DNA of 64,000 nt from a virus. Positions 49,222 to 63,166 of this stretch are shown piece by piece (position 1 is the stretch's first letter; the number at the start of each line of letters is the position of its first letter). The stretch lies in IMG/VR virus record IMGVR_UViG_3300028920_000054, positions 26,362-90,361 of that record. One strand, 5' to 3'. The position numbers and the translations under genes are program-made. A model generated the notes under the pieces. That model saw only the letters and a program-made list of their open reading frames with translations. It was not told the origin of the DNA and did no database searches.

Positions 49222-49223
49222 AA

Positions 49224-49415
49224 TTATCCCCTATATATTATTGTGTTATCTGTTAAATACCCAAATTTCTTTTTCCAAACCCCTTTCGGCCAAGACTTCT
49301 TCTGCAACTCAGATTTTGGTGTTGGAAAATCCCCGTTTCCCCATCCTTCAGATACGTGGTTGTGTTCCCATGCATTCTTTTTTGGATTAAACCTTTGCCA
49401 AACAGTTATCCGCAT
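49224..49415 (-). CDS. hypothetical protein
   Basis: Coupled ORF. Confidence 0.45.
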   Translation of the reverse strand: MRITVWQRFNPKKNAWEHNHVSEGWGNGDFPTPKSELQKKSWPKGVWKKKFGYLTDNTIIYRG

Positions 49416-49834
49416 TTCAATAGCCTGTCATACAAAACAACATGAACCGTTCCAGCCAAGTTCATACACTGATTCGTTGGAATGTAGATTGTATCCTTAC
49501 ACCAAGAAGTGATTTCATCGCCAAGAGTTCCGTCTTCAGGGCCAAAGATATAGAAGGCTTGTTTTGGGTGGACATAATTTCTAAGGTCAATAGCACCTTC
49601 TATCAAGTCAACCGCTACGGTAACACAATTATAAGGAACAATGCTGTGTAAATCATCCACCTGTAAAAGTGGCATATGCCTATGATGTTTCATAGTGTCG
49701 GTTGGTGCTTTCCGATATCGTCTTCCTGAAATGGCAAGCATATAAACACCAAAGTTTCCACAGGCACGAAGGACGCTACCAATGTTATTGTTGTCCTTTG
49801 GTAAATGGAGACCTATGCAAGAATATCCTTTCAT
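49406..49834 (-). CDS. SpoU/TrmH-family (SPOUT) RNA methyltransferase
   Basis: N.G.V.RA, FGPE..., IP...C.NLA....V.LYD. Confidence 0.88.
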   Translation of the reverse strand: MKGYSCIGLHLPKDNNNIGSVLRACGNFGVYMLAISGRRYRKAPTDTMKHHRHMPLLQVDDLHSIVPYNCVTVAVDLIEGAIDLRNYVHPKQAFYIFGPEDGTLGDEITSWCKDTIYIPTNQCMNLAGTVHVVLYDRLLKCG

Positions 49835-49842
49835 TTAAACTC

Positions 49843-50100
49843 CTAATAAATTATCGTTCCACACCCAAGCGAATCGCTGTGTATGGTTCCAACGCTAAAC
49901 CTAGGGTCAAGGTCTTCGTCCACAAATTTGTCGGCACAAGAAATAACAGCTTCAAGAGCATCCGCTATGTCACCTTCAAGGCTAACCCCCGTACAGGTTC
50001 TTCCGTACATTCCTCTGCCTGAATAATCTTCATACAATTCAGCCTCAAAACCGGATTCATTCAGAGCTTCTACAATTGCTTCTGCTAATTCACGTTTCAT
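49843..50100 (-). CDS. hypothetical protein
   Basis: YSGRGMYG..C and DSLG..I.Y motifs common in phage early genes. Confidence 0.6.
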   Translation of the reverse strand: MKRELAEAIVEALNESGFEAELYEDYSGRGMYGRTCTGVSLEGDIADALEAVISCADKFVDEDLDPRFSVGTIHSDSLGCGTIIY

Positions 50101-50126
50101 TTTTACACCTCCATTCTTTTGGTTAA

Positions 50127-50155
50127 ACTGTATCACACAAGGCCGTTAATGTCAA
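50127..50155 (-). promoter_or_regulatory. sigma-70-type promoter
   Basis: TTGACA-17-TACAGT; 22-bp segment 50108-50129 is identical to 46553-46574. Confidence 0.75.
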
Positions 50156-50264
50156 GCCTAATCTTCGTCTTTTTCCATCATCTTCCCTATTTCTTCGTCT
50201 GTCCTGCTTGCGATTATACATAAACACCACACTAGAACCACCAACATGCAAGCTATAAATATTG

Positions 50265-50567
50265 CTATCCACATTTTATTTCTTCCTCCTTTGTAATAAT
50301 GTCAAACTCGTTTCTATTTAATGGTTCCCAAATAAAGCCCGTTCTTTGATACCTCTGAGTTTTTTGCCACCACCTTTTGGGTAGCTTAACGATTTCCCTG
50401 AAATACCAATGGTGCGTTCCGCTTAATAGGTCAGCCCATGCCTTGTACATATTGTAGTCATCCGGCATAGATGCCTCATAAAAACCACCATCAGAACGTC
50501 GCCTAATAATTTCATCCAAGTGTCTCTTCCAAATACATTTTTCGTTTACTATTATCCCAAGCCTCAC
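50265..50567 (-). CDS. hypothetical protein
   Basis: GGGGGTG RBS, GTG start. Confidence 0.45.
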   Translation of the reverse strand: MRLGIIVNEKCIWKRHLDEIIRRRSDGGFYEASMPDDYNMYKAWADLLSGTHHWYFREIVKLPKRWWQKTQRYQRTGFIWEPLNRNEFDIITKEEEIKCG

Positions 50568-50734
50568 TTAGTCACCCCCGACTAACGTTTTTTCTTCTTC
50601 TGTCAATTCTCGAACTTCAACCACATATCCATCACTAGAATACGTTTCGACACAATCATCAACTTCGTCGTCTTCCCTGAATGACGTTATCTTTGTGTTT
50701 GTCTTGGTTGCTATAATTGTTTTCATGGTCACAC

Positions 50735-51061
50735 CTATATTTCTATGATTTTAATTTCTGGTTCCCTTGCTTTTCTTATTGAGTCTACAAGGTTTTGACC
50801 CGCTTCTTTCATTAGGTCGATCATTTCAATGAAGGATTTCTTGCCCATTTTTTGGTTTACAGAATACACCGTCTTAGATTCACCCATAAATTCAACCGAA
50901 TCCTCGCGCCGATACATTCTTTGTGGCGTATCAACATACTTCTCAAAAACAGTGTCGCCATAGGCTTCAGATATTTCCCACGTAGTTTTAAACCCCTCAA
51001 ATTGCACAATAACGTACTTTCCCTTTACCTTTTTGTAGTGTACCTTCGCTAAATTTTTCAT
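50735..51061 (-). CDS. hypothetical protein
   Basis: AGGAG RBS. Confidence 0.55.
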   Translation of the reverse strand: MKNLAKVHYKKVKGKYVIVQFEGFKTTWEISEAYGDTVFEKYVDTPQRMYRREDSVEFMGESKTVYSVNQKMGKKSFIEMIDLMKEAGQNLVDSIRKAREPEIKIIEI

Positions 51062-51276
51062 AGTTATTCTCCTTTCTTTATCCTATTTTTAAACGAATTA
51101 ATCTTCCTGGATACCCGCAGTATTTCACTTGAAACATCCACCGCTTCTTCCTTAGCCACTTCCTTCAGGAACAGTTTTTCATATGACATTCGCATCACCG
51201 ATTTCGACAACATTCTGTTTCGTTGTGCTGTAGCCTGCATTGCTAATCTCCTCCCCTTTTTTATTTTTGGGGTTCC

Positions 51277-51447
51277 CTATCTATGCCTGTAAACATTCAA
51301 TCCGATCACAACACCATCAATTTCCTTATTCCCTTCTGTGCTTGCTATGATAATCGTTTTTCCTGATTTAGAAGGGCCGAAATCTTTCTTGGTATCAACT
51401 TTGATTACCATGATATCCTTTTCCATTTTGATATCTACGTTTTTCAT
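51277..51447 (-). CDS. small conserved protein
   Basis: G.SKSGKT..IAST.GN...GLNVY motif. Confidence 0.65.
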   Translation of the reverse strand: MKNVDIKMEKDIMVIKVDTKKDFGPSKSGKTIIIASTEGNKEIDGVVIGLNVYRHR

Positions 51448-51470
51448 TTTTGCACCTCCTTTTTGATTTA

Positions 51471-51499
51471 AGCATATCATCTTGTTCTGTTAAAGTCAA
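51471..51499 (-). promoter_or_regulatory. sigma-70-type promoter
   Basis: TTGACT-17-TATGCT then TAAATCAAAAAGGAGG. Confidence 0.75.
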
Positions 51500-51506
51500 G
51501 CAAAAT

Positions 51507-51926
51507 CTACGCCCTAATGTAAAATGTTTGCCCATCAAATTCAACCGTTCCATAGTCCTGTTTAATTTCTTCGGCAACCCCTTCCCAATCAATGTGATTT
51601 GCTATATACCACGGTAAGTCAGAGGGAATGTCTCCAATATCCTTACATAGTTCTTCGCAGTATTCTTCAAAGTAATCTTCGTTGATAAGGGTAGCACCGC
51701 AATCCCAATCAGGGAAGTTGCTTCCATCGTTGTTTAATTCCTTCAAGATGTCAAGTTCATCCCCGTTTTCTTCAAGCCAGGAATTTAACGCTTCCTTAGC
51801 TTCAGCCTCTTCGTCTGCATCGGCTTCTTCAATGTCTGCAATTAGACCCTCTTCTTCTGCCGTAAGTTCTTCCAATCTTTCAATTATATCCCTGCTGTCA
51901 ATTACATCTTGCGTGTTGTCAATCAT
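51507..51926 (-). CDS. highly acidic ArdA-like antirestriction/DNA-mimic candidate
   Basis: Very D/E-rich; F.EY..EL..D.G.IP..L..YI..IDW...A.....DY resembles the ArdA C-terminus. Confidence 0.55.
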   Translation of the reverse strand: MIDNTQDVIDSRDIIERLEELTAEEEGLIADIEEADADEEAEAKEALNSWLEENGDELDILKELNNDGSNFPDWDCGATLINEDYFEEYCEELCKDIGDIPSDLPWYIANHIDWEGVAEEIKQDYGTVEFDGQTFYIRA

Positions 51927-52071
51927 TTCGGTTCTCCTTTCAAATCAGTAATAAAGTAAAAAGCATCACCCCAACAAACATCAAAAACCCTGTACATTTT
52001 AACGCTTCGATTAGGTCAGATTTCATTTTGTAGCCCCCTTCGGTTAGAAATAAAACCCCATGGATGGAAGG

Positions 52072-52485
52072 TTATTTACGCTTTTCAACTTCAATTACCG
52101 GAATGTCAAATGACGTATAATAATGAACAGACTTCCATCCAACCACAATATACTTTATAATATCTCTGTGCTTCTTATCCCACCTTAAAATCGCTCGAAC
52201 CGTAGCACCAGAAGAAACAAAATCGTCAACGATTGCCCCAACTGTCCTCCCATGAAAATATAGCCCCGCCACATCTGAATGCGTTCGTTCTTTGGCTTTC
52301 TTTATTGCAATATGGGTTAGCGGTTTCTTTGACAATGCCAACATAGCGGCGGCTATCGAACAACCACTATATCCCCTTGAAACAAGAGTGTTGACTTCAG
52401 GCGGAAGCTTTTTGAGATACGCTTTCGCTACGGTTCCAATGCTTTTTGATTTATATAGTGTTTCATTATATGATACGTGTTCCAC
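52072..52485 (-). CDS. phosphoribosyltransferase domain protein
   Basis: PRPP-binding loop IVDDFVSSGAT. Confidence 0.8.
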   Translation of the reverse strand: MEHVSYNETLYKSKSIGTVAKAYLKKLPPEVNTLVSRGYSGCSIAAAMLALSKKPLTHIAIKKAKERTHSDVAGLYFHGRTVGAIVDDFVSSGATVRAILRWDKKHRDIIKYIVVGWKSVHYYTSFDIPVIEVEKRK

Positions 52486-52505
52486 TTCGCACCTCCTTTG
52501 ATTTT

Positions 52506-52534
52506 AATATATGCTATAATTTATATAGTGTCAA
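52506..52534 (-). promoter_or_regulatory. sigma-70-type promoter
   Basis: TTGACA-17-TATATT then AAATCAAAGGAGG. Confidence 0.7.
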
Positions 52535-52574
52535 GTAAAATCTTTAACGAAAACAAAACCCATTGGTAAGAAGT

Positions 52575-52742
52575 TTAATTTTCCCCTTCTTCGCCATCAA
52601 TCTCATAATCAAGGCGTGGCTTAATTTCCCTGTAAACTGAATCAACCCCACCACACCGAATCCTGTCCATCCGTTCATAATTTTCAACCAGTTTTTCGAG
52701 CACCATAATGCGCTCTTCCAATCTTTTAATCTTTTCTAACAT
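52575..52742 (-). CDS. small coiled-coil protein (paralog of 55823-55999)
   Basis: GGAGGTG RBS; LVENYERMDRIR. Confidence 0.5.
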   Translation of the reverse strand: MLEKIKRLEERIMVLEKLVENYERMDRIRCGGVDSVYREIKPRLDYEIDGEEGEN

Positions 52743-52759
52743 AATCACACCTCCCCGTT

Positions 52760-52999
52760 CTATATTCCCTGTTCCTGGATATCCCACGCTTCTTCAGGTT
52801 CCCAGAATTTAACATATTCCCTGTAAATAAGGTCGTTTGAAGCAAGACTTGGATCACCTTCTGCAAAGCCCTGCCACCAGTCTTCCATAATTTCAACTGC
52901 GCTTTCAATCGCTTTGTCCCTTGTCCTGCCAACGAAAACATCACACTGGGGAACGTCATCATAGTTAATCCACCTTCTTGTAATTATCGTTATCTTCAT
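52760..52999 (-). CDS. hypothetical protein
   Basis: GGAGGTG RBS. Confidence 0.5.
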   Translation of the reverse strand: MKITIITRRWINYDDVPQCDVFVGRTRDKAIESAVEIMEDWWQGFAEGDPSLASNDLIYREYVKFWEPEEAWDIQEQGI

Positions 53000-53190
53000 T
53001 TTTTCACCTCCATTGTGTGCAAAAGCTTACAAATTGTTGTACCCGGATGGCAATCAGCGCAAAGTGTTATATATTTTGGTCTGCCAACGCTTTCGGCTTG
53101 AACCAATCTAACCTTTATAAGATATACTTCTTTGCCATTCGGTTTCTTTTTACATAAATCACACGCTACTGGGTAATCCACTTTAATCAC
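52996..53190 (-). CDS. small zinc-finger protein
   Basis: CDLC...CADC. Confidence 0.5.
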   Translation of the reverse strand: MIKVDYPVACDLCKKKPNGKEVYLIKVRLVQAESVGRPKYITLCADCHPGTTICKLLHTMEVKK

Positions 53191-53372
53191 CCCCGTTTTA
53201 AATGTTCGTTAGATATCTTTAAAAATTCGATTGCCTGATTTATTGAATCAAGGGCTAATCGGTAATTAGCTGATGCAAGTACGTTTTCGTTCAGCTTGCT
53301 ATCCAAATCGTCAGATATTTCAAACAAAATGCTAAGTTTTAATTCACCAAGTTGTTTTATGCACTCGTCCAT
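53187..53372 (-). CDS. hypothetical protein
   Basis: AGGAGG RBS. Confidence 0.5.
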   Translation of the reverse strand: MDECIKQLGELKLSILFEISDDLDSKLNENVLASANYRLALDSINQAIEFLKISNEHLKRG

Positions 53373-53383
53373 TTCATTGCCTC

Positions 53384-53656
53384 CTAATCTGTACCAAATT
53401 GTTCTTGGTATAGTTTTTTGAAAGTCTCGTTATCAACCCTTGAATCCTTTTGGCCCCCATCAATCCAATTGAGATGTTTCCCCGTAGTGGTTCCCCACCG
53501 ATTTTGATGAACCACAAGGCCATTGCTTCCCCTGAATGCCACAAGCGTTTTGTAAGAATAATAAAAATCATTACCCCTTGAATCTGTGAAACACAGGGTA
53601 TGCGCTCCGTAATTGTCACTTGAATATTCTCCATAATTGTGAAATTTTACTTGCAT
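53384..53656 (-). CDS. hypothetical conserved phage protein
   Basis: YSY.T.VAF, N.W..TTGKH.NWID. Confidence 0.6.
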   Translation of the reverse strand: MQVKFHNYGEYSSDNYGAHTLCFTDSRGNDFYYSYKTLVAFRGSNGLVVHQNRWGTTTGKHLNWIDGGQKDSRVDNETFKKLYQEQFGTD

Positions 53657-53876
53657 TTTGCACCTCCCATCAATAGTTAAACGACAAGTCTAACAAGTTA
53701 GACAGTTCCATTGCTTCTTGTTCCGTTAGTGTGATCGCCTGTGTTCCTTTTTGTATTGCCACAACATCCTTGTCACCCTTAACACGTGGTAATTGACTTT
53801 TTATGGTCAAGGTGACATCTTTTTCGGTATAAATTCTAGTGACTTCCATGATACCCCCTTTTCAAATAATCCATGG

Positions 53877-54395
53877 TTAGGAAATCCCATCCGTATATTT
53901 ATAAACATCAAAAGTCTTACCGCTTGCTATGCGTTCAAACTTTCCACCGATAAATTCAGCAATGCGATAATAACAATTTGTTCCAATACCACCACTATAC
54001 CCAGGGTTAGCATCACCGTAAACGTGGATACCATAAGGAGCTGGGCCATCGTCAAGACTCCCGTTCCCACCCCTGATATTTTCTATTCCCAAACCCCAAA
54101 GCTTGTATTTCAGAAAATCGTTGAAAATATCAGCAATGACGGTTGATTCCTTATCATACCCACAACCACTACACCTATACCCATCACGGCGTTCATAATG
54201 ACCATCTTGATATTCTACAGAAGCTTCGGCGTTAGGATTTGACCCCCAGGTTCGTGACCGCTTCCATTCGATAGTAATGGTTATAGTCTTGATAGGTTTT
54301 TGGTTCTTCTCTGATTCAATGCGGTCAAGTTCTTTTTTGGCTTCTCGATCCGCTTTCCTTGCTTCTCTTCTTTCCGCTTTTTCTTGTTCCGTCAT
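53877..54395 (-). CDS. hypothetical conserved phage protein
   Basis: EW..SR.WG.NP, SGCGYDKEST. Confidence 0.6.
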   Translation of the reverse strand: MTEQEKAERREARKADREAKKELDRIESEKNQKPIKTITITIEWKRSRTWGSNPNAEASVEYQDGHYERRDGYRCSGCGYDKESTVIADIFNDFLKYKLWGLGIENIRGGNGSLDDGPAPYGIHVYGDANPGYSGGIGTNCYYRIAEFIGGKFERIASGKTFDVYKYTDGIS

Positions 54396-54399
54396 CGCT

Positions 54400-54606
54400 C
54401 TATTCTCCCTTCGCTTCAAAGTTGTTACAGCAAAAATCAGGCTTTGTTACAATTTCTTCACCCGTTGTTAAATATCCGTCAACATCCATTATTCGCACCA
54501 GCCCCCACCCTTCGCCTGTTAAAAAAGAACAAAAACCATAATCAAAGGTAATGCTACCTATTTTTCTAACTTCCCAATTTTTACATCTTTCGCATTTTTC
54601 GATCAT
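54400..54606 (-). CDS. small Cys-rich protein
   Basis: CERC..W, G.C, T.PDF.C..F. Confidence 0.55.
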   Translation of the reverse strand: MIEKCERCKNWEVRKIGSITFDYGFCSFLTGEGWGLVRIMDVDGYLTTGEEIVTKPDFCCNNFEAKGE

Positions 54607-54628
54607 GTTAAACCCCCTTTTTGATTTA

Positions 54629-54657
54629 ATCCTACACCCTGAAATATGCAATGTCAA
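54629..54657 (-). promoter_or_regulatory. sigma-70-type promoter
   Basis: TTGACA-17-TAGGAT then TAAATCAAAAAGGGGG. Confidence 0.7.
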
Positions 54658-54754
54658 GCTTTTTCTTTGCTATTTGAAAAATAAACAATCATGGTTAGAC
54701 ATGCCCTTAAAACTTTTATCCCCTATATACACTAATCAATCTAAATTTTGAAGC

Positions 54755-55141
54755 CTATAATCTTTCCGTATTCCATAGAAGGTCTTCGTATAGTTCATCA
54801 CCCAAGAAGCGCTTCAACTTATCGGCCTGTCGTTCGCAAACCTTGAACAGTTTTTCATCTTTCCGACTGTCCGTGTCATATCCATATTCATCGGCCCAAT
54901 CTTCAAAGGAACGCGCATTTTCAACCCCAGAACTATCAGAGGCAAGAGCATCAAGGACACTTTCTGTTGTTGGCTCTCCGCTTATACCATAACCCTGCGA
55001 AAAGTATGTTGTTAGCTGTCTACCTGAACGCTTGAGTGTGACCTTGTAATGGTTGGCGTTTTTCCAGTCCGGTGCATTTTTGTTCTCATCGGCCCACTCA
55101 ACACTGATACTTATTTTGTTTTTCTTTACAAAGTTTTTCAT
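54755..55141 (-). CDS. hypothetical conserved phage protein
   Basis: P....VL..L..D, FE.WA.EYGYD.DSRK. Confidence 0.65.
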   Translation of the reverse strand: MKNFVKKNKISISVEWADENKNAPDWKNANHYKVTLKRSGRQLTTYFSQGYGISGEPTTESVLDALASDSSGVENARSFEDWADEYGYDTDSRKDEKLFKVCERQADKLKRFLGDELYEDLLWNTERL

Positions 55142-55209
55142 TTCCCTGTACCCCCTGTTTGTTTTTTTAAAACTAAAACCTTGTGGTTAGAAATGCCCCT
55201 CAATACGCT

Positions 55210-55527
55210 CTACCATATAACAAACTTTCTAGTTTCAATAAGCGAAATTAGATCACGTCTATTAAAAAGCGCAATTCCTTCCGAATTCCTAATGTGGGTG
55301 AAATAATCGGAATATACGGGATAGGCATCGTAATTGAGACCGTCAGTGGCCGCATTGCAGTTTTTAAGGTAATCTCCATAATTTCGCTTTGTGTGGGTTA
55401 AAGAGAATTCTTCCCCAGTTTCATCACTTCCAGTTATATCAAAAACCATCTTATTAATTCTTATTTTTCTCCCATTTCTAATTTCACGAACGCTTTTAAT
55501 GTCTAATGCTGCCGCCTTCTTTGGCAT
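55210..55527 (-). CDS. hypothetical protein
   Basis: AGGAGGTG RBS. Confidence 0.5.
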   Translation of the reverse strand: MPKKAAALDIKSVREIRNGRKIRINKMVFDITGSDETGEEFSLTHTKRNYGDYLKNCNAATDGLNYDAYPVYSDYFTHIRNSEGIALFNRRDLISLIETRKFVIW

Positions 55528-55822
55528 TACACACCTCCTTTTTTATTTACTAAAAAACTAAACCCTATGGTTAGAAGAGTACTTGATACGCCCCTTCACT
55601 CCCATATAATAACAACATCTAAACAACACCCTATCACATCCGAAAATAAAACACCACAAGAAAAAGAAAATTAACAACATAAAAATCGTAAGTGGCTGAA
55701 AATTGGAAGGGAAAAGAAGGGTGAGGCCGCTTCCCCGGCGCCCCTAATCTGCAATATAGTAATCTAATCAGCAACTTACAGCGAAAAATCATCCCATTCG
55801 TTCCCCCCTAAAATCCCGAAAC

Positions 55823-55999
55823 TCACGCCACCAAAGGATCACAGCTTTCCTCAATCGAACCTTTCAGGTCTTTTTGTGGTCGGATATACCCATCCTGGCG
55901 AAGTTTTTCCATTGCTTCGTAGTTTGAAACTATCCTTTTTAGTCTCTCGTTTTCCTGTTTTAGCTTTGAAATTTCTCTTGTCCATCCATTTTCTATCAT
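55823..55999 (-). CDS. 58-aa coiled-coil protein (not in the ORF track)
   Basis: Hand translation MIENGWTREISKLKQENERLKRIVSNYEAMEKLRQDGY...; AGGGGG RBS. Confidence 0.5.
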   Translation of the reverse strand: MIENGWTREISKLKQENERLKRIVSNYEAMEKLRQDGYIRPQKDLKGSIEESCDPLVA

Positions 56000-56276
56000 T
56001 TTAGCCCCCTTTTGGTCATTTTTTATAAAATCTACAATTTTTTATATTCAATCTTTACGGTAGCTTAGTCAACTTCGCCAACAAGGGATATATCGGTTAA
56101 AAATATCAATGTTTTGGTCATTTAATGACCGGCGGTCAGCGTTCTTTGATCTTCCTGCCACGGTATTTTATTCGCATATCTCCGCCTGACTTTGTTAGAA
56201 ATTCCCGTCCGTCCTTTGCTATGAATTTTATAATCATTTTTAATCCCCTTTCTTTTGGTTTCTTCTTGCCATAGAT

Positions 56277-56462
56277 TTATTTTCCTATTACCTTAAAGTT
56301 TCCCACCTTGTTGCCGTTGCTGTCATACAAAAACCTTTCCCTTATATTGCTTTGTGCAATGTGCTCCACGGCATCTACCAGTATATCCTGTAGCTCGTCT
56401 GCGTTTTCTTGAAACGCTGAATTATCTGTTTTGATATTAATAACTATTTTCATGGTCTTCAT
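56277..56462 (-). CDS. hypothetical conserved phage protein
   Basis: I.TDN.AF, L.D.NGNKVG. Confidence 0.6.
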   Translation of the reverse strand: MKTMKIVINIKTDNSAFQENADELQDILVDAVEHIAQSNIRERFLYDSNGNKVGNFKVIGK

Positions 56463-56539
56463 TCTCCTTTCTTAGTAAATCGCTTCAATGTGGTTGACAA
56501 TAATATTTTTCACTGGTTGACGATTGATTGACGATTTTT

Positions 56540-56800
56540 TTATTGTAATCTACCAACCTGTTCACCGCTGAAAAGTTCCTCTTTTGCCTCGATCGCAATG
56601 TCCCTTGCCTGGTTTGCGAGCTTTTCTGTCAATCTTAATCCGGTTATTTCTCCTGAACACATCAACCCTGCAAGCGTAAACAGAATACAGGCTATTGGCC
56701 CAAGTCCAAGATTTTCCGATTCTTGAGCGCAACTTACAATTGATTCGTGTAGCTGGTCAAAGCTCTTTGCTTGTGCTTCTGTAATTTTTTGTTCGTCCAT
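56540..56800 (-). CDS. hypothetical protein
   Basis: AGGAG RBS. Confidence 0.45.
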   Translation of the reverse strand: MDEQKITEAQAKSFDQLHESIVSCAQESENLGLGPIACILFTLAGLMCSGEITGLRLTEKLANQARDIAIEAKEELFSGEQVGRLQ

Positions 56801-56978
56801 TATCTTAATCTCCTTTCCATAGGTTTATTTTTCAATCTTAACATTTCCACCTTTAATAAAATCCGACCCGCCATAAACATCTGCCATGCTATAGTGTTGT
56901 AAAACATCGGCAGTTATTCTGATATAATCATACTTACCTTCATTCAACGGCAATGTCATATTCCTATATGTTACCCTT

Positions 56979-57293
56979 TCAAACATAGTTCCCGATCCCT
57001 GGAAGGTTTTTCAGGTTCATATCTATGCAAACATATTCTTTGCATAAATCCTCAATCTGGTCTTCATCGTAATCAGGCCAATTTTCTTGAACATCCTTTA
57101 TGAGATAATCTTCAAGCTCGCATATATAGTCAAGATTATATTCATAAAGGTCTGAAGTGTAATCGTCCATACCATTTTCAAGAATCTTGACAAGTGAATC
57201 TTTATCAAAATCATTGCCCCAGTCAACTTGTGGTTGGTGGTTTTCTATATATGCAATAATTTCTTTTTCTACTTTTTGGGTTAGCTTTTTCAT
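56979..57293 (-). CDS. acidic hypothetical protein
   Basis: D/E/Y-rich; RBS present. Confidence 0.5.
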   Translation of the reverse strand: MKKLTQKVEKEIIAYIENHQPQVDWGNDFDKDSLVKILENGMDDYTSDLYEYNLDYICELEDYLIKDVQENWPDYDEDQIEDLCKEYVCIDMNLKNLPGIGNYV

Positions 57294-57331
57294 TTTGCAC
57301 CCCTTTCATTTTCACCCGTTCTTAATCTGTT

Positions 57332-57610
57332 TTAGCTGAACTTCAACCAATCTTTCACGCTATCAATATCACGAAAATCTTTATCAATCAATGACCTTAT
57401 TTTGCAGGTGTCCTGATCCAATTCGTTTATTTTCCAGACAAGTTTCTTGTCTTGTCCAAACATATCACTCCATCTATAAGTTGACCTCACCAAAAACGCA
57501 TTGCCCGTTGCTTTCCCATGTAATACCCGGTAATCTACATCTCCAAAAAACTTTTTATTCTTTCTTGAAAACCAATCCTGCTGTGCTTCCTTTACTTGCG
57601 AAAGTTTCAT
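57332..57610 (-). CDS. hypothetical protein
   Basis: WF.....KFFGD motif; AGGAGGTG RBS. Confidence 0.55.
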   Translation of the reverse strand: MKLSQVKEAQQDWFSRKNKKFFGDVDYRVLHGKATGNAFLVRSTYRWSDMFGQDKKLVWKINELDQDTCKIRSLIDKDFRDIDSVKDWLKFS

Positions 57611-58336
57611 TTTGACACCTCCTAAAAAATAAATCCTGGTTAGAAAATTAACTACATTCTTTCATGTAACCGCAAAGCCAGCCTCTCACCCAGTAAATAT
57701 GGCTGAGCGAATAGTAACTGTAGGGACTTTGCGCCTCTGTCCGGTGGTTAATCCATGCCTGTAATCCTTCGTTCATTATCATTAATCTTTTCATTGTCTT
57801 TTTCTCCTTTCCATAGGTTCTTTTTATTCTGGCAATCCTAGTTTTTTCCAATGAACCAACAGTCCCAACAGACGTGACCCGGCGACTTGGGGTTTAACTT
57901 CCGCATGTATTCAATTTGTTCTTTCATTGCTCGCATTGAATTAATACCGGAGTCCGTCAAGTGCCGTTGTTCCTTTTTGGTCAATACCTTTTTCGCTAAT
58001 TTTGTTCTTATCATTTTATCACCTCTTTTTATTTGATGTTAGCATAATTCAAAATGTTAATCAATGACTAAAAATCACTTAATGCCATCAACAATATCTC
58101 CGCAAGCGATCCATTATCTAGTCAAACATCTTTTGGCCCCTATCCATTGTTACACCCTCCAGATTGCAAAGCCATTCGGCATTCTATTTAGTCCTGCACT
58201 TTCCTTGAATCGGTCTATTGCATCACGCTTGTTTATTCCGTATGCATCCATAGCATACACCCAACCAGGAACGCGTATCATATAATGCTTCATTGTCGTA
58301 CCTCCCCCGAAAAAGAAAACTATGGTTAGAAAATCT

Positions 58337-58648
58337 TTAAATATAACCTAATACCAAAAGCCATGATGGCGATCCGTCAGACCCGTAACCGTCGGGCTCG
58401 CACCACTTCCCCGTTATACTTTCGCACCCGCAGTCGCTTGACCAGCGTTCAAGCGTTTCGACACTTGGTTCTTTTGAAAATCCGGTTAACATATTACTTC
58501 CTTTGTGTGCCCTTGTTTTAAAAGTTTCACCCTTGACTGTCACCTCTAAGTAATGAGAAAAACCCTTCTGGATAAAGTTGACGCTTGCCTTTTCACCTTT
58601 GCGAAACTCCCTGCCATCTTTTAACTTAACGTCTCTTTTTAGTTTCAT
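58337..58648 (-). CDS. hypothetical conserved phage protein
   Basis: PS.ETLE.W..D..C....G...EPDG....G.PSWLL.LG.I. Confidence 0.65.
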   Translation of the reverse strand: MKLKRDVKLKDGREFRKGEKASVNFIQKGFSHYLEVTVKGETFKTRAHKGSNMLTGFSKEPSVETLERWSSDCGCESITGKWCEPDGYGSDGSPSWLLVLGYI

Positions 58649-58755
58649 AATACCACCTCACTTTTTAGTTTTTTAATCTATTAATCTATAATCTATTGAC
58701 CCCGGCGATTATAGACTTAATTACTTGCCCACATAGGAAAATAATTACCTTGTGG

Positions 58756-59565
58756 TTAGAAGGGAATCTCTGTTAGCAAATTGCCCTTCCATTGTTTACA
58801 CTCATCTTTAAAATACCTATCATAACATTCCGTACATATACCGTCTTTCATACCTTCTTTATGCACTATAACACCGCAAACATTGCATTCTATATACTCT
58901 TCCGGATCGTCAATCAATGTATCATAATATGGCTCGTTATAGCTGTAATAGTCTTTTTTATTGCCCTTCGAAAATCCCTCCCAAAAGTTTCTGCGCTCTA
59001 TTTTATAGGTTGAATTTGAAAACAATATAGCCCCATCTTTTACCCAGTTACCAAAAGTTATTACGTCTCCGTCTCCGTTCAAAATTACAACCCTGTTACC
59101 TTCAAGGGCCATGTCTAACAAGTTTAAAACCCTAATACTACAAAGTTCATCAAAAGAAAACCGTGACAATGTATCTCTAATAAACTCCATTGTATCAGAA
59201 ATAAACTTGTCTCCAAGTCCCTGAAAAATACCGTTATGCGCTAGCCCGGTATCGCATGATATTTCTAAACTTTGTAAATCAGTTACAGAATTTGACAAAG
59301 GAAAGGGATGAGAATTGCCCGGCTTTATTATGCCACTTGTGGCGATTCTAAAGTGGTACACAATGGGAGTATTTTTTATGTCTTTGACATTCTCGTTAAT
59401 TGATTTTCTCAAAGCCCTAACACCTGAAAATCCTTTTCTGATATGTACCTGGTTATTTTCTGCATACATATAACCACAATAATCTGGATTATTGGCGAAA
59501 CAGTTCTTTAATATGGTTTTTGACGGTTGTTCAATCCCTATCGGTTTATAAGCAATTATACACAT
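58756..59565 (-). CDS. class II (Ntn) glutamine amidotransferase
   Basis: N-terminal MC, N.D..G, HFR.AT.G, HPF, HNG, SDT. Confidence 0.88.
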   Translation of the reverse strand: MCIIAYKPIGIEQPSKTILKNCFANNPDYCGYMYAENNQVHIRKGFSGVRALRKSINENVKDIKNTPIVYHFRIATSGIIKPGNSHPFPLSNSVTDLQSLEISCDTGLAHNGIFQGLGDKFISDTMEFIRDTLSRFSFDELCSIRVLNLLDMALEGNRVVILNGDGDVITFGNWVKDGAILFSNSTYKIERRNFWEGFSKGNKKDYYSYNEPYYDTLIDDPEEYIECNVCGVIVHKEGMKDGICTECYDRYFKDECKQWKGNLLTEIPF

Positions 59566-59566
59566 A

Positions 59567-60832
59567 TTATAAATTCCTCTCTTTCATATATGTTTTAAGT
59601 TCTTTATTTCCTTTGATGCAATAATCTTTTAAGTCATTCCAAGAAACCCTGGAGCACTCACTAACGGAATGAGATACACAATACCGTACTATGCTATCAG
59701 TTAGCTGAAAAGTAGCTATTAGGGTATTATACTTTAAAGTGCCTTTCCACAGTCTAAATTCTGTAGTTTCATAACCGGAGATATTAACAGCATAATATCG
59801 GCCCGCTTGTTTCTCATAATTCAATCCGTTAATGGTTTTAACATTATTGTTTTTTTGACAATACCCTATATTGTCACGCCGTGAAAAGTTGTAAAGTTCA
59901 GTCCAAAATCGTTCAAAGATTTTCAAAATTTTGAGTTGTGAGATGCAAATTCCGGTTTGAGATTTACCTAAAAAAGAGTTATTGACGTGAATATGTAATC
60001 CACAAGTTGAAACATTGTGTGAAAGGCACCCGTCATTGACAAGTTGCTTTAAAAGTGCCTCCCATTGATACTCTTTTTTGTGATATTCAAGGGTGAAGGG
60101 TTGAGTTACAATCTCAAAGCCATTATTGAGCGATCCATCATCTTTAAATTCAGTTGAATCGTGAACTATGCCAATGGAGTTTTCAGCAGTTTCTCCCCGA
60201 TCGTTATTTCGGCACTCAACTTCCAACTCAACGCCCAGAAACAAAAGTTTGTCGGAATTGCAATGCCTATAAACAGGAGTATCGCCTCGCATTGATGCGA
60301 AAATATGCGCTAATGTCCTATCATAGCGGCCAATTGAACCTTGATTTTCAGGATAGCAATTTTCACAATAATAACAATCGTCATATTCACAATACATTAT
60401 ATAGTCATTGTTTATTGCCTCCCCGCATTGCTCGCAGTATGTAAAGTTCTCGCAAAAGCATTCCTCGCAATAACGTGAATCATAAACTGTTGTCATATAA
60501 TCACAATGATATATTTCATTGCAATCCTCACACATAAAATAGTTTCTATTATAGCAATCCTCGCAGATTATATCGCCTCCCTCGGTTGTATATGTTTCAT
60601 CGGTTGACACTCGTTCCCCACAGTCAGAGCATTCGACAAGGTTTTCATCGATGCAGTCTTGACATAAGGATCGACCATCAATTACTTGTAATTCATTTTC
60701 AAGGTAATAGTCTCCGCACTCCTCACAACTATTATATTGAGTTAATAGGCAATTTAGACATACTGTTCCATCATTAGTTTCATACCCTTTCATTCCTTCT
60801 AAAAACTCCTGGTTACAGTTTATGCACTTCAT
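59567..60832 (-). CDS. COOH-NH2 amidoligase with N-terminal CxxC repeat array
   Basis: GVELEVE, DGSL..GFE.VT.P, CGLHIH, RY..VN, EFR; many CxxC units in the first ~160 aa. Confidence 0.85.
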   Translation of the reverse strand: MKCINCNQEFLEGMKGYETNDGTVCLNCLLTQYNSCEECGDYYLENELQVIDGRSLCQDCIDENLVECSDCGERVSTDETYTTEGGDIICEDCYNRNYFMCEDCNEIYHCDYMTTVYDSRYCEECFCENFTYCEQCGEAINNDYIMYCEYDDCYYCENCYPENQGSIGRYDRTLAHIFASMRGDTPVYRHCNSDKLLFLGVELEVECRNNDRGETAENSIGIVHDSTEFKDDGSLNNGFEIVTQPFTLEYHKKEYQWEALLKQLVNDGCLSHNVSTCGLHIHVNNSFLGKSQTGICISQLKILKIFERFWTELYNFSRRDNIGYCQKNNNVKTINGLNYEKQAGRYYAVNISGYETTEFRLWKGTLKYNTLIATFQLTDSIVRYCVSHSVSECSRVSWNDLKDYCIKGNKELKTYMKERNL

Positions 60833-60861
60833 TGTACGCCTCCTTGAAAATAATTTTTTGA

Positions 60862-61050
60862 TTAAACTGATATCATTCGCCTCAATTGATTACCCGTAAT
60901 TTTTCGGTATGAAGTTTGATAGTACTTTTCACTATTCTTTATAAGCCTTATATACCTTCGGTCCGCTTGGCTTTTATAGTGTCGCTCCTTTGAGATATCA
61001 CCCTTCATGGCCGCTTTAAATTCTTTTCGGTTTTTTTGTGATAGGTACAT
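60862..61050 (-). CDS. small basic protein
   Basis: AGGAGG RBS. Confidence 0.45.
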   Translation of the reverse strand: MYLSQKNRKEFKAAMKGDISKERHYKSQADRRYIRLIKNSEKYYQTSYRKITGNQLRRMISV

Positions 61051-61203
61051 GATGCCTCCTGATTAAGTTCGGTTATTCTTTTGTTCCATGCCATAGGTGA
61101 AAGTGTCCCTCCGCTGGCCCTATATGCTAGGTATGTTCCCGATAATACCCAGCTACCGTTTTTCCTTTTTCTGTTTAACTTCGTCATGTCATACGCTTCC
61201 TGT

Positions 61204-61533
61204 TTAAAAAGTTTCATTAAGTAGGTGTTGAACGCAACCCCAAAAGACAACAACACCTCCGCGCCCGTCCATATCGTTTAATACCCTCTCAATTGATTCT
61301 CCTATAAGTTCGTACTCGTCACAACACAGAGAAGTTGCCACTTCTTTTCTTAGTTCTTCTTTTGTCATAGCGTTCACCTCTTTTTCGCTCCACAGTGAAC
61401 AGGTAGTTTCACCTTGGAAAAAATGTGGCCCGTATGCATTAGTACATCCGGTTAGTTTGCGATTATTGATTCCACGAGTGCCGTCAAGGCTGGCGTCAAA
61501 AAACTTACAAGATGTGCATTCTTTTTTGTTCAT
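61204..61533 (-). CDS. hypothetical Cys-containing protein, first gene after the promoter cluster
   Basis: GGGAGG RBS; CTSCKF; may be two fused genes (internal GAGGTG..ATG). Confidence 0.5.
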   Translation of the reverse strand: MNKKECTSCKFFDASLDGTRGINNRKLTGCTNAYGPHFFQGETTCSLWSEKEVNAMTKEELRKEVATSLCCDEYELIGESIERVLNDMDGRGGVVVFWGCVQHLLNETF

Positions 61534-61556
61534 GCTTCTTGCCTCCCTTTGTTTTT

Positions 61557-61585
61557 ATTATAATGTATTGCATACACTATGCCAA
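61557..61585 (-). promoter_or_regulatory. overlapping sigma-54 (-24/-12) and sigma-70 promoter
   Basis: TGGCATAGTGTATGCA (GG-N10-GC) within TTGGCA-17-TATAAT. Confidence 0.65.
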
Positions 61586-61757
61586 AAACACAAACCACAA
61601 CAAATTCATGCAGTTACACAAAAGCGCAAAGGCACAAGGTTTTCCGGTATAGGCTATTACTTAGGCTAAAAACAGACAAATTCTTTTAAGTTGTTAATTT
61701 GATTAATAAACAAGGTTGGTTATATTTGACCAATGCCCGGCTATTTCTAGCCACACA

Positions 61758-61773
61758 AGCACAAACCGTGCCA
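61758..61773 (-). promoter_or_regulatory. sigma-54-type promoter
   Basis: TGGCACGGTTTGTGCT. Confidence 0.65.
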
Positions 61774-61814
61774 AGCTTTGCAGAAAATAAATTTATTTTT
61801 TTATTTGACAGAAA

Positions 61815-61830
61815 TGGCATGATTATTGCT
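61815..61830 (+). promoter_or_regulatory. sigma-54-type promoter
   Basis: TGGCATGATTATTGCT. Confidence 0.65.
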
Positions 61831-61837
61831 TGGTGCT

Positions 61838-61988
61838 GAAGGTACGATACATGCGGAAGGCTGGGAACTACCGGAAGGTCAAGAAGGTACGGTAGATGCT
61901 GAACATACGGAAGGTAAGGGAGGTGCGCACCATGCGGAAGGTGGGGAAGGGGGGGTAGGTACGAAAGGTTCGGAAGGTGGGGAAGGTG
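61838..61988 (+). repeat. 9-bp-periodic purine-rich GAAGGT repeat
   Basis: GAAGG-like cores start at 61838, 61856, 61874, 61883, 61910, 61919, 61937, 61946, 61955, 61964, 61973, 61982; all spacings are multiples of 9. Confidence 0.8.
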
Positions 61989-62213
61989 GCCTCCCCCCAA
62001 TATTTTATTTACAATATACGATTTTGTTGTTGTTTCCCCTGTTTAAATGTGTGGGAGCGACACATATTGTTTATAGGCGTGCCGACTTATAATGGCACGA
62101 TATAAGGAAGGTGTTGGGAGGATTTTGAATTCAGGGAAAAGGTTGGTGTAAAAATATTTTGTGGGTACTATAGGGTTTTGTTAAGAATCCATCCAAAGGA
62201 TTTCACCATGGGT

Positions 62214-63164: not shown

Positions 63165-63166
63165 TT

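Follow-up and report, generated by a model that had tools for sequence, protein, structure and literature searches.

Short single-element promoters next to the transcription start site are familiar as phage-specific signals, as in the T4 late promoter TATAAATA and the N4 middle promoters, and the T7-like mitochondrial polymerases employ promoters of 9 nt. The early RNase III sites of T7 and the epsilon enhancer of T7 gene 10 represent precedents at the RNA level, and stoperators may overlap stop or start codons. The stoperators are documented as asymmetric, co-oriented sites of 13-14 bp that stop elongation (PMC6550527), and intergenic direct repeats of 21-22 nt occur in the T1-like phages TLS (PMC11447400) and Stevie (PMC4319613), their function being explicitly left open in both reports.

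Herein, we describe a repeat of an uncultured marine-sediment phage, in which the gaps between small early genes carry nine same-direction copies. Each consists of an asymmetric 9-nt core TTCTAACCA, a following Y-R-R and then a T-rich tract, giving a conserved unit of about 25 nt. Judged from its sequence, the repeat is most likely a putative phage-specific expression signal, and thus an already known kind of element.

The repeat copies and their clustering

The copies and the related elements found in the window, namely the whole 64,000-nt stretch of DNA analyzed, are as follows, with the distances to RBS and ATG counted from the motif start.

58733..58761, minus strand: copy 1 (17-mer 58761-58745), core TTCTAACCA then a T-rich tract; its TAA provides the stop codon for a 269-aa GATase-like gene (58756-59565); next start codon at 113 nt
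58303..58331, minus strand: copy 2 (subfamily B; 17-mer 58331-58315), 5 nt past the stop of 58337-58648; RBS GGGGGAGG begins at 24 nt, ATG at 38 nt
57792..57825, minus strand: pre-RBS repeat AACCTATGGAAAGGAGA, one of the two copies of the 34-nt family D15
57617..57645, minus strand: copy 3 (subfamily B; 17-mer 57645-57629), 2 nt past the stop codon of 57648-57794; RBS near 23 nt, followed by ATG at 35 nt
56798..56831, minus strand: second AACCTATGGAAAGGAGA pre-RBS repeat, 85% identical to the first over 34 nt, directly after a TAA stop
55537..55576, minus strand: copy 4 (subfamily A; 17-mer 55576-55560), the sole exact 17-mer match, at the 3' end of a non-coding gap of 295 nt and separated from the last convincing gene by 246 nt; ATG at 49 nt
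55153..55192, minus strand: copy 5 (subfamily A; 17-mer 55192-55176), 17 nt past the stop codon of 55210-55527; the phrog_4273 gene begins with its ATG at 51 nt
54661..54700, minus strand: copy 6 (17-mer 54700-54684), GTCTAACCA, 54 nt past the stop of 54755-55141; its T-rich tract reaches the following promoter
54629..54657, minus strand: sigma70-like promoter TTGACA-17-TAGGAT, its -35 beginning 43 nt downstream of the copy 6 start
53855..53882, minus strand: copy 7 (subfamily B; 17-mer 53882-53866), TCCTAACCA; its TAA provides the stop codon for a 172-aa gene (53877-54395); RBS near 25 nt, followed by ATG at 33 nt
52544..52572, minus strand: copy 8 (17-mer 52572-52556), TTCTTACCA, 2 nt past the stop of 52575-52742
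52506..52534, minus strand: sigma70-like promoter TTGACA-17-TATATT, its -35 beginning 38 nt downstream of the copy 8 start
52042..52069, minus strand: copy 9 (17-mer 52069-52053), degenerate core TTCCATCCA, 2 nt past the stop of 52072-52485; after the T tract, a second core word TTCTAACC (52049-52042) stands directly before the RBS of a 28-codon ORF

The nine minus-strand copies in one orientation that a preceding sequence-only reading had reported were all recovered, each at most 2 nt from where it had been placed. Copies 1 to 9 showed 3, 2, 4, 0, 1, 4, 3, 3 and 2 mismatches to the 17-mer TTCTAACCAYRGGKTTT, and 0, 0, 0, 0, 0, 1, 1, 1 and 2 to the 9-nt core TTCTAACCA. A search with the 17-mer allowing up to 3 mismatches, which missed copies 3 and 6 (4 mismatches each), gave 9 matches in the window versus 1.54 expected, and at least 9 were reached in none of 100 shuffles; seven of these matches were copies already reported, and the other two lay at 36027 (plus strand) and 45266 (minus strand). 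The shorter word YCTAACCA was not over-represented window-wide (8 matches versus 4.04 expected; at least 8 in 9 of 100 shuffles), and it was strongly clustered, with 7 of the 8 window matches on the minus strand within 53874-58760 (4.9 kb). This stretch holds 7 of the 9 minus-strand matches and none of the 3 plus-strand matches of the whole 90,361-bp record, and the largest same-strand cluster per 7 kb in 1000 dinucleotide shuffles was 4, versus the 7 observed. By these shuffles, the clustering on one strand is far beyond chance. Within the region, of which 20% is non-coding, seven cores are free of coding sequence and the other two share bases with a stop codon. The proposal of a gene-boundary signal was accordingly supported, in that the motif is real, strand-specific and intergenic and constitutes the top direct-repeat family of the early module. 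The D15 repeats have AACC(T)ATGG in common with the motif and are devoid of the T tract.

Gene boundaries, shared leaders and structure searches

The assignment of the TAA as a stop codon in two copies proved correct for the ORFs 58756-59565 and 53877-54395. That most of the other copies begin close to a stop codon held for copies 2, 3, 8 and 9 (2-5 nt after) and not for copies 5 and 6 (17 and 54 nt) or copy 4 (246 nt past the last convincing gene), so that six of the nine abut a stop codon. The gap preceding copy 4 contained no convincing ORF and no significant structure, which ties this copy to the downstream gene rather than to a stop codon. The stop-codon association looks like a result of tight gene packing, since the similarity among the copies extends toward the RBS downstream and no convincing gene precedes copy 4.

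The longer shared flanks noted earlier were confirmed, copies 4 and 5 being 73% identical over 40 nt and copies 2, 3 and 7 being 71-77% identical over 31 nt. This extended similarity reaches downstream to the RBS of the next gene and not upstream, the mean pairwise identity being 0.44 in the downstream 20 nt versus 0.34 in the upstream 20 nt. The core-to-RBS spacing is constant (21-22 nt) in copies 2, 3 and 7, and the RBS lies 38 nt from the motif start in both copies 4 and 5. The distance from the core end to the next start codon is 24-42 nt in six of the nine copies and 78-104 nt in copies 1, 6 and 8. The T content of the 20 nt after the motif was 0.48, compared with 0.30 for the remaining non-coding windows and 0.26 for coding ones, with the core-to-T-tract distance ranging from 12 to 17 nt. 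Because the genes flanked by the copies are not paralogues of each other, the shared leaders are not leftovers of gene duplication.

An ACC-N4-GGT dyad, described for several copies, was seen in copies 1, 4, 5 and 8. The predicted dG at the copies was 0 to -3.2 kcal/mol, indicating no stable hairpin and ruling out a canonical intrinsic terminator for the motif, and the searches of the element for an Rfam match, conserved RNA structure and covariation were all negative. In the sense-strand intergenic DNA of the 21-kb module, no canonical terminator was found. At the convergent junction 42815-43009, a canonical hairpin-plus-T terminator used by the phage was read by eye. The statement that the motif is neither a promoter nor an RBS stood in part: it is not an RBS, and no sigma70-type -35/-10 promoter was found at the motif itself, whereas a phage-specific single-element promoter is the reading that we put forward below. 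The suggested resemblance to attC failed, as the inverse core RYYYAAC fits one of the nine copies and none has a correctly placed GTTRRRY with a folded imperfect palindrome. No tyrosine or serine recombinase was found in the 90-kb record, and together these tests led us to reject an integron attC site.

Candidate roles of the repeat

We tentatively regard the repeat as a single-element promoter or leader signal that is specific to the phage and serves early-region genes of a delayed class. The element would be an expression signal belonging to the gene downstream, and we infer that it acts as a promoter whose core TTCTAACCA lies at about -10 to -2, with a pyrimidine occupying -1 and transcription beginning at a purine. 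Such a promoter would be read by an RNA polymerase that the phage either encodes or modifies, and not by the unmodified host sigma70 enzyme. The host RNA polymerase would first transcribe the leftward early module from several sigma70-like promoters, and the motif would next supply own, probably later, start sites to a gene subset in the 6.7-kb block, namely the genes starting at 58648, 58293, 57610, 55527, 55141, 54606, 53849, 52485 and 52026. The T-rich tract may serve as an easily melted, initially transcribed leader reaching to the RBS.

This reading is suggested by the nine co-oriented sense-strand copies within a co-directional module, all of them intergenic or on a stop codon. The alignment showed Y in 7/9, R in 8/9 and R in 9/9 copies directly after the core, matching Y-R as the usual -1/+1 pattern of start sites, and the core-to-start distance of 24-42 nt in the majority of the copies is normal for the spacing between promoter and start codon in compact phage genomes. 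The extension of the inter-copy similarity down to the RBS points in the same direction, as does the fact that the motif is not a canonical intrinsic terminator whereas the phage has one elsewhere, and the restriction to a single block of the module agrees with a temporal class of promoters. Against the promoter reading, the PF00940 and PF04542 searches for an RNA polymerase or sigma gene were empty in the 90-kb record, which is rated 51% complete and limits this negative to that extent, the PF00940 result being also unvalidated because its control matched in none of 14 control genomes; the PHROGs (77 ORFs) and Pfam (75 ORFs) scans likewise named no polymerase or sigma gene. Initially transcribed regions rich in T are uncommon among T7-type enzymes, and the variability of the core-to-T-tract distance also counts against a promoter. 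In addition, copies 1, 6 and 8 are 78-104 nt away from the next start codon; good sigma70-like promoters follow two of them (copies 6 and 8) in the classical terminator-then-promoter order, so that the promoter reading needs tandem promoters there, and the second core word of copy 9 cannot be a working promoter for its gene since it stands 8 nt before the RBS.

That same order, with the -35 elements following 43 and 38 nt behind copies 6 and 8, would suit a factor-dependent transcription stop, in which a phage protein on the core (DNA or nascent RNA) blocks or terminates host RNA polymerase at the U-rich tract, either as a stoperator-like roadblock or as a hairpin-independent attenuator, and thereby separates immediate-early units from downstream genes having no sigma70 promoter of their own. 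We consider this unlikely. The motif is asymmetric, co-oriented with transcription, intergenic and 0-5 nt from a stop codon in 6/9 copies, its downstream 20 nt are rich in T (0.48), and another limit on read-through is plausible given that no canonical terminator was found on the intergenic sense strand of the module; stoperators moreover provide a precedent (PMC6550527). However, such a stop would lack a stable hairpin at the copies and would have to be leaky or regulated, because genes such as 58293 and 57610-56540 would have no promoter downstream of the signal. It does not need the similarity down to the RBS, copy 4 follows no gene, the sites are limited to 6.7 kb and not genome-wide, and the record yielded neither an HTH_3 repressor nor an integrase. 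Another reading is an RNA leader, where the core and U tract on a polycistronic early transcript would serve either as a cleavage site, at which a host or phage endoribonuclease divides the transcript into units whose 5' ends are defined, or, ahead of the Shine-Dalgarno sequence, as an enhancer or operator of translation. The presence of the motif on the sense strand only, the fixed 21-22 nt from core to RBS in copies 2, 3 and 7 with the equal 38 nt in copies 4 and 5, the strong Shine-Dalgarno sequences directly downstream of U-rich, unstructured sequence and the related AACCTATGG-AAAGGAGA pre-RBS repeat at 57825 and 56831 (family D15) argue for it, but in copies 1, 6 and 8 the distance between the element and the start codon is 78-104 nt, and promoter-proximal transcripts would lack it where copies 6 and 8 precede a sigma70-like promoter. 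A 9-nt invariant core is also long for known RNase specificities, and conserved RNA structure, covariation or an Rfam match was not found. The start-associated sequences of Cluster K phages (PMC3203893) provide a precedent, and we hold an RNA-level role to be unlikely.

A recombination junction, where PeSL-like short shared boundaries allow small accessory genes to be swapped, inserted or deleted by the phage's own Erf and exonuclease system rather than by a site-specific integrase, appears quite improbable, and could coexist with a regulatory role. Both enzymes are encoded (Erf at 47226-48008, YqaJ exonuclease at 46603-47226), and the single genes 58337-58648, 55210-55527, 54755-55141 and 52072-52485 have a copy on each side, the flanked genes being unrelated to each other. 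Homologues of the phrog_4273 gene, which are 69-72% identical in 3 of 6 IMG/VR loci, and of the 172-aa gene, which number 668, are scattered without synteny over otherwise unrelated phages, and the GATase-like and 172-aa-family genes, 4.4 kb apart here with copies 1-6 between, are separated by about 0.6 kb in the only partly syntenic contig, L043; PeSL cassettes furnish the precedent (PMC2839356, PMC4122927). However, the shared sequence amounts to 9-40 nt, the motif was found in no relative, one flanked gene is an ORFan, no relative was found in which a breakpoint could show, the attC features are lacking, no integrase or resolvase was found, and the same phage in two other runs showed no differences on the pieces listed. 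Very improbable, finally, is a repeat with no function of its own, either as decaying traces of a recently duplicated leader or as a DNA site unrelated to expression (strand-specific nick, Chi-like). The two or three subfamilies in this one genome possibly reflect recent copying, but the core is invariant in five copies and nearly so in four amid unrelated flanks and adjacent genes, and the strict intergenic placement (roughly 0.2^9 at random) speaks against a gene-indifferent site of DNA metabolism.

Comparison with known systems

The CTAAC of the motif resembles part of the attC inverse core, and the repeats agree with attC in overlapping the stop codon of the preceding ORF in some copies, in their direct orientation and in occurring in places once per gene, but they have no GTTRRRY partner with an imperfect palindrome of 57-141 nt and no integrase, and their unit is about 25 nt. 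The T1-like repeats differ in their unrelated consensus aaATAGCACnnnTTGnTAAAA, in lying about 76 nt upstream of starts and in their genome-wide distribution with 18-21 copies as reported for TLS and Stevie (PMC11447400, PMC4319613); hosts and phage lineages are also unrelated.

According to PMC6550527, the stoperators of the Cluster A mycobacteriophages L5 and Bxb1 are likewise asymmetric, oriented with transcription and placed in short intergenic spaces. They number 20-30 genome-wide, in contrast to nine copies in 6.7 kb, and require the immunity repressor of a temperate phage (PMC6550527), whereas no repressor or integrase was found here; the present element additionally has a T tract and similarity reaching the RBS. 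PeSL cassettes of T4-type phages similarly place repeated regulatory sequences around small non-essential ORFs in a variable early region (PMC2839356, PMC4122927), and two copies here precede sigma70-like promoters, with some flanked genes widely exchanged among phages. A PeSL, as described there, combines a strong sigma70-like promoter with a working stem-loop terminator, whereas the present repeat has no stem-loop and is followed by a promoter in just 2/9 copies. The SAS/ESAS of Cluster K mycobacteriophages share the asymmetric, one-orientation design (13 bp), the location in the non-structural genome half, the association with gene starts and the occasional inclusion of the upstream stop codon, their function being given as unknown (PMC3203893). 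SAS, at a distance of 3-7 bp from the start codon, include the Shine-Dalgarno core (PMC3203893), whereas the core here is 24-104 nt from the start codon and separate from the RBS.

The single-element promoters of phages differ in their unrelated sequence, and in the present case a T-rich tract follows the core and the 90-kb record yielded neither a cognate polymerase nor a sigma gene. The apparent likeness comprises a short asymmetric conserved core, many co-oriented intergenic copies a few tens of nt before gene starts, a Y-R start context, restriction to one gene block or class and, in some cases, a tandem arrangement with host-type promoters.

The early module and its recurrent element

The 90,361-bp IMG/VR record (CheckV completeness, 51%), of which the window is the last 64 kb and whose DNA was also contained in three marine-sediment metagenome runs, all of them DNA runs, carries on its plus strand the large terminase and portal genes (translations read by eye; the terminase confirmed by tblastn matches), a long sugar/glycan enzyme block, and head, connector and tail genes, which together with a 1835-aa tape measure indicated that the phage is a siphovirus. 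On the minus strand, about 55 genes, mostly small and in the majority without a known family, run leftward through the window from 64000 down to 43010. This early module has strong ribosome-binding sites (RBSs) of the GGAGG type and, in its intergenic gaps, several good sigma70-type promoters that have a leader in common; it is closed at 42815-43009 by a canonical hairpin-plus-T terminator (read by eye). These ordinary RBSs, sigma70-type promoters and canonical terminator pointed to a bacterial host with ordinary transcription signals. The named early genes are as follows.

58756-60832, minus strand: amidoligase/GATase-like pair, comprising a 421-aa amidoligase_2 with a Cys-rich N-terminal part and then a 269-aa protein starting MCII
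49406-49834, minus strand: SpoU-type RNA methylase
minus strand: Erf
minus strand: YqaJ exonuclease
minus strand: SLT transglycosylase

By our own reading, the 269-aa protein resembles an N-terminal-nucleophile glutamine amidotransferase, with no Pfam match. A Thg1-like tRNA-His guanylyltransferase adjoins a metallophosphoesterase/exonuclease at window 40766-41479 and 41600-42814, and these two may form an RNA repair or modification set together with the SpoU-type methylase; no tRNA or tmRNA gene was found in the window by ARAGORN. The glycan/sugar-nucleotide block between the portal and head genes is unusually long, at about 26 kb on the plus strand (approximately 7.7-33.6 kb of the whole record; window up to 7227), and contains glycosyltransferases, epimerases, an aminotransferase, a sulfotransferase, a fucosyltransferase, methyltransferases, a SPASM-domain protein and a nucleotidyltransferase/HAD fusion. 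The 127-bp inverted ends of the record (record positions 1-127 and 90235-90361) are probably not physical ends. A 1294-nt contig from one of the runs (X1), at about double depth (53 vs 24.9), spans window 63698-64000 and extends about 1 kb past the record end; the full genome may be about twice as long as the record, with the present segment bounded by an inverted repeat.

Nine minus-strand copies of a motif had been claimed in the sequence-only reading, and all of them were present, each no more than 2 nt from the position assigned there. The conserved part proved to be a 9-nt core, TTCTAACCA, which is directly followed by Y in 7/9 copies, R in 8/9, R in 9/9 and usually one or two further G, and a T-rich tract (TTT-N-TTTT) begins 12-17 nt from the motif start. 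On average, T made up 48% of the 20 nt after the core, whereas other windows on that strand averaged 30% if non-coding and 26% if coding.

Copies of the element, all on the minus strand (motif start; state of the core; distance from the preceding stop codon to the motif start; spacing between the core end and the following start codon; ranges are those of the group of copies)
Copy 1; 58761; exact; overlap, motif TAA is the stop; 78-104 nt
Copy 2; 58331; exact; 2-5 nt; 24-42 nt
Copy 3; 57645; exact; 2-5 nt; 24-42 nt
Copy 4; 55576; exact; 246 nt past the last convincing gene; 24-42 nt
Copy 5; 55192; exact; 17 nt; 24-42 nt
Copy 6; 54700; one change; 54 nt; 78-104 nt
Copy 7; 53882; one change; overlap, motif TAA is the stop; 24-42 nt
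Copy 8; 52572; one change; 2-5 nt; 78-104 nt
Copy 9; 52069; two changes; 2-5 nt; 34 nt, using start codon 52026 set by eye

A 17-mer search allowing up to three mismatches gave nine matches in the window against 1.54 expected, seven of the nine being copies of the sequence-only reading; copies 3 and 6 need four mismatches and were recovered through the core. Over the whole window, the core word YCTAACCA was not over-represented (8 vs 4.04 expected; a count of 8 was reached in 9 of 100 shuffles), but seven of its eight matches fell on one strand inside 4.9 kb, while the largest same-strand cluster per 7 kb in 1000 dinucleotide shuffles was 4. Outside the motif stretch, the record holds two minus-strand and three plus-strand occurrences, which is about our own estimate from composition alone. 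An unbiased search for direct repeats in the module ranked the motif first (families D1, D2, D3, D6), and in a crude k-mer count it was the most specific intergenic 8-mer of the genome, the RBS excepted, the other frequent words looked up being coding. The motif is real and statistically solid.

Several other repeats were observed in the module. Two degenerate look-alikes stand outside the nine copies, namely ATATAACCAACCTTGTTTATTAAT at 61697-61731 (minus strand), in a non-coding stretch near 61.7 kb, and TTCAATCCACAGGGGTTTAATTTC at 45259-45282 (minus strand), within gene 45162-45509. The gaps at 57825 and 56831 carry AACCTATGGAAAGGAGA (family D15), which has AACC(T)ATGG in common with the motif and no T tract. 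Three tandem (A)TAGATTA units at 58670-58695 (minus strand) could form a small operator-like array; they stand in the gap after copy 1, immediately before the RBS that serves gene 58337-58648. At 61534-62213 (minus strand), about 680 nt hold no convincing gene (a 104-aa ORF at 61686-62000 has no RBS); this stretch is pyrimidine-rich on the sense strand, contains at least seven copies of (A)CCTTCC(G) and among them four 21-nt direct repeats spaced by 36-45 nt (family D4), lies just upstream of a strong promoter, TTGGCA-17-TATAAT, at 61585, and may represent a protein-binding array or an origin of the iteron type. Two 53-nt copies with 79% identity, at 46553-46605 and 50108-50160 (minus strand), each comprise a complete sigma70-type promoter, TTGAC-17-TG-TAyAGT, and then the leader TTAACCAAAAGAATGGAGG, and the promoters at 54657, 52534 and 51499 have the leader AAATCAAA(A)AGG in common.

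Placement of the copies relative to genes

Of the motif region, 20.4% is non-coding. Seven of the cores fall entirely within such DNA, and the other two overlap a gene's last two codons and its stop. Placement at or just after stop codons, as originally described for the motif, held in that six of the nine copies abut a stop. We read this, however, as packing rather than a stop-codon signal, since with 12-20% non-coding DNA anything in a gap abuts a stop. The similarity among copies extended downstream: copies 4 and 5 (subfamily A) are 73% identical over 40 nt, up to the RBS at position 38, copies 2, 3 and 7 (subfamily B) show 71-77% identity across 31 nt, their cores lying 21-22 nt from the RBS, and the mean pairwise identity between copies was 0.44 downstream vs 0.34 upstream. 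In the 295-nt gap upstream of copy 4, the ORFs look spurious and no significant structure was detected (z = -0.12 vs shuffles). As the extended similarity reaches the RBS, copy 4 follows no gene, and the RBS spacing is fixed within subfamilies, the element appeared to be tied to the downstream gene and not to the upstream stop. Sigma70-like promoters are located 43 nt from the motif start of copy 6 (TTGACA-17-TAGGAT) and 38 nt from that of copy 8 (TTGACA-17-TATATT). An origin of the copies as a by-product of gene duplication was rejected, the flanked genes being unrelated (best pair E = 0.16 in a 44-protein database).

Relatives and strain variation

Megablast of the 7-kb motif region against 50,697 phage records gave no match, and neither the large terminase nor the 421-aa protein led to a close relative in tblastn, all matches being below 60% identity (best rows 40.5% and 31.8%). 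The exact 17-mer pattern occurred once each in 21 IMG/VR loci, and the core words near these matches (17 contexts, 10 of the 21 loci) were chance-like. Single-protein scans of IMG/VR with the 421-aa and major head proteins returned nothing, a JGI metagenome scan with the 269-aa protein gave no match, and the 105-aa gene between copies 4 and 5 retrieved only itself among 5.8 billion proteins. The phrog_4273 gene was found in six IMG/VR loci (three at 69-72% identity), with neither synteny nor the motif. The 172-aa gene has 668 homologues; an alignment of its family identified 39 IMG/VR loci, of which L043 alone was partly syntenic and none held the motif cluster, and the 3' flanks at 21 of the 39 (L036-L056, L038 ending at a contig edge) showed no common motif after the stop. 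These two genes, both flanked by motif copies, thus belong to widely scattered families, which have different neighbors in other phages. The phage records, IMG/VR contigs and JGI metagenome contigs searched thus had at most isolated genes in common with this phage.

The L043 contig keeps the amidoligase and GATase-like pair (7441-9433, 36-38% identity) and a 172-aa-family gene, the GATase-like gene and the latter being about 0.6 kb apart, compared with 4.4 kb here, where about 15 small genes and copies 1-6 lie between them. This comparison suggests that the interval is a variable region, whose origin the 34-51% protein identity to L043 leaves unshown. When the 421-aa protein and its L043 homologue were used as an alignment query, 22 loci were found, and most of the protein was matched only in L075 (33%), which is the L043 contig again, and L076 (27%).

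Two of the metagenome runs, X2 and X3, showed no differences from the record among the longest pieces listed (106 further pieces lie outside these), and a separate table of differences lists a single one for X2 or X3, C>A at 47794, in X2. One X2 contig is listed as matching up to 52059, inside copy 9, and then continuing with at least 255 nt of unrelated sequence. Short spurious matches at 80% likeness also occur in the table that includes this contig end, which may be one of these short spurious matches or may come from a strain variant whose junction falls within the motif.

Candidate functions and comparison with known repeat systems

An intrinsic terminator, which has a G+C-rich hairpin of at least 5 bp immediately before a U tract, was rejected, as a consensus scan found no terminator-like site at any copy. 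Local RNA folds of the copies ranged from 0 to -3.2 kcal/mol, the best stem, by our own reading, being 3-4 bp of AAC(C)/(G)GTT in 6/9 copies, and no compensatory changes were seen in the stems because the left arm is invariant. A sigma70 promoter, with -35 and -10 hexamers 16-18 nt apart, was excluded at the motif: the minus strand of 44001-64000 has 26 promoter-like sites, all of them clear of the nine copies. Nor would a two-element promoter fit in copies 2, 3 and 7, whose RBS starts 23-25 nt after the motif start. A two-element promoter with the T tract as its -10 was also discarded, as the spacing varies over 12-17 nt and the start would fall in the RBS of copies 2, 3 and 7. A known RNA family was rejected by the lack of any Rfam match at E up to 1, tRNA-like or anticodon-loop mimicry by the absence of stems and a negative ARAGORN result, Phe-rich leader peptides by an ATG in just 4/9 copies, stop-codon readthrough by the different frames in which the motif TAA falls, antisense sRNA by an early region holding no complementary copy, and archaeal-type oligo-T termination by the good sigma70-type promoters and canonical terminator of the phage. 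A Marbox-style activator half-promoter and CsrA, DnaA-box, LexA, IHF and parS sites were dropped by eye.

The proposed resemblance to attC did not withstand comparison, and the attC reading was rejected. The inverse core RYYYAAC occurs in only one of the nine copies (copy 6, GTCTAAC); the other eight either begin with T or C or have an altered core. An attC site has its R' (GTTRRRY) 57-141 nt downstream, in an imperfect palindrome that folds as single-stranded DNA. In the present case, GTTRRRY ending 45-145 nt downstream was found in 3/9 copies, all inside the next gene, with DNA fold z values of +1.0 to -2.1; copy 6 has no downstream GTTRRRY, and no copy combines both consensus ends with a folded palindrome. 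In the six frames of the 90,361-bp record, which is maybe about half a genome, no tyrosine recombinase (PF00589) was matched (control positive in 14/14 genomes), nor was a serine recombinase (PF00239) matched in the record.

We tentatively favor, at less than even confidence, the reading of the motif as a phage-specific single-element promoter. Promoters of this kind have a short invariant core at a Y-R step, are co-oriented, and are confined to one gene block. In all nine copies the core lies on the sense strand ahead of a gene, with Y, R and R after it in 7, 8 and 9 of the nine; this invariant core at a Y-R step, its distance of 24-42 nt from most starts, the common orientation and the restriction to one gene block match such promoters, as do three places in which the element is in tandem with host-type signals or lies far upstream of them. 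The reading is weakened by the T-rich leader, by the classical terminator-then-promoter order at copies 6 and 8, and by a second core word at copy 9 too near the RBS to work as a promoter. It is further weakened in that no polymerase or sigma gene was found in the record (PF00940 and PF04542 without a match, the PF00940 control being silent and the record a fragment, 51% complete); most early proteins have no family assignment. A 1240-aa protein was considered as a virion polymerase and rejected, having no Pfam, PHROG or PDB match and beta-helix proteins as its atlas look-alikes. If the motif is a promoter, it predicts an unseen phage transcription factor or polymerase, whose gene probably lies in the part of the genome that the record lacks.

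An unlikely rival is a stoperator-type roadblock or attenuator that depends on a factor. Stoperators are described in PMC6550527 as asymmetric 13-14-bp sites, 20-30 per genome, oriented with transcription. Like those of Cluster A mycobacteriophages, the present copies are asymmetric, intergenic and oriented with transcription; unlike them, with their genome-wide distribution and an operator in the early lytic promoter, the nine copies lie within 6.7 kb. Stoperators are bound by a cognate immunity repressor; neither an HTH_3 repressor nor an integrase was found in the record, which is a fragment. The promoter and regulated-stop readings predict the same biology, namely that genes directly downstream of a motif copy and with no sigma70 promoter of their own would differ in expression from sigma70-adjacent genes, in being later or in some other way. 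These genes are the following.

58293, minus strand
57610-56540, minus strand
55527, minus strand
55141, minus strand
53849-52575, minus strand
52026-51507, minus strand

An RNA processing or translation element ranks somewhat below the roadblock. If the motif is a stop or processing signal, its mechanism would be hairpin-free. We regard as improbable a PeSL-type recombination junction that uses the phage Erf/exonuclease, both of which are encoded in the module. In the PeSL cassettes of T4-type phages (PMC2839356, PMC4122927), a strong sigma70-like early promoter is joined to a stem-loop terminator, whereas here a promoter follows only 2/9 copies and there is no stem-loop. More doubtful still is a composite in which the core and T tract would act as a hairpin-independent, sequence-specific gene-end/gene-start signal, the polymerase, aided by a phage factor, pausing or terminating in the U tract and then restarting there or being released, while the 25-40-nt unit would at the same time be a portable boundary for Erf/exonuclease shuffling of single accessory genes; if true, it would represent a kind of regulatory cassette not described for tailed phages of bacteria. 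Least probable in our estimation is that the element has no function of its own.

Among other known repeats, the start-associated sequences of Cluster K phages (PMC3203893) lie 3-7 bp before the start codon and contain the Shine-Dalgarno core. The present motif differs in having a separate RBS and a core that stops 24-104 nt short of the start codon. The 21-22-nt repeats of T1-like phages are intergenic and co-oriented (PMC4319613, PMC11447400), and their function is listed as an open question (PMC11447400), in keeping with co-oriented intergenic phage repeats being common and often of unresolved function. At present, our finding is one of annotation and holds no surprise: the motif belongs to a known kind, the co-oriented intergenic regulatory repeat of a phage. 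It provides a clean case in an uncultured, ORFan-rich marine-sediment siphovirus, with an invariant 9-nt core and a T tract but no hairpin, and with copies that keep strictly to gene boundaries within a block of small, exchangeable genes.
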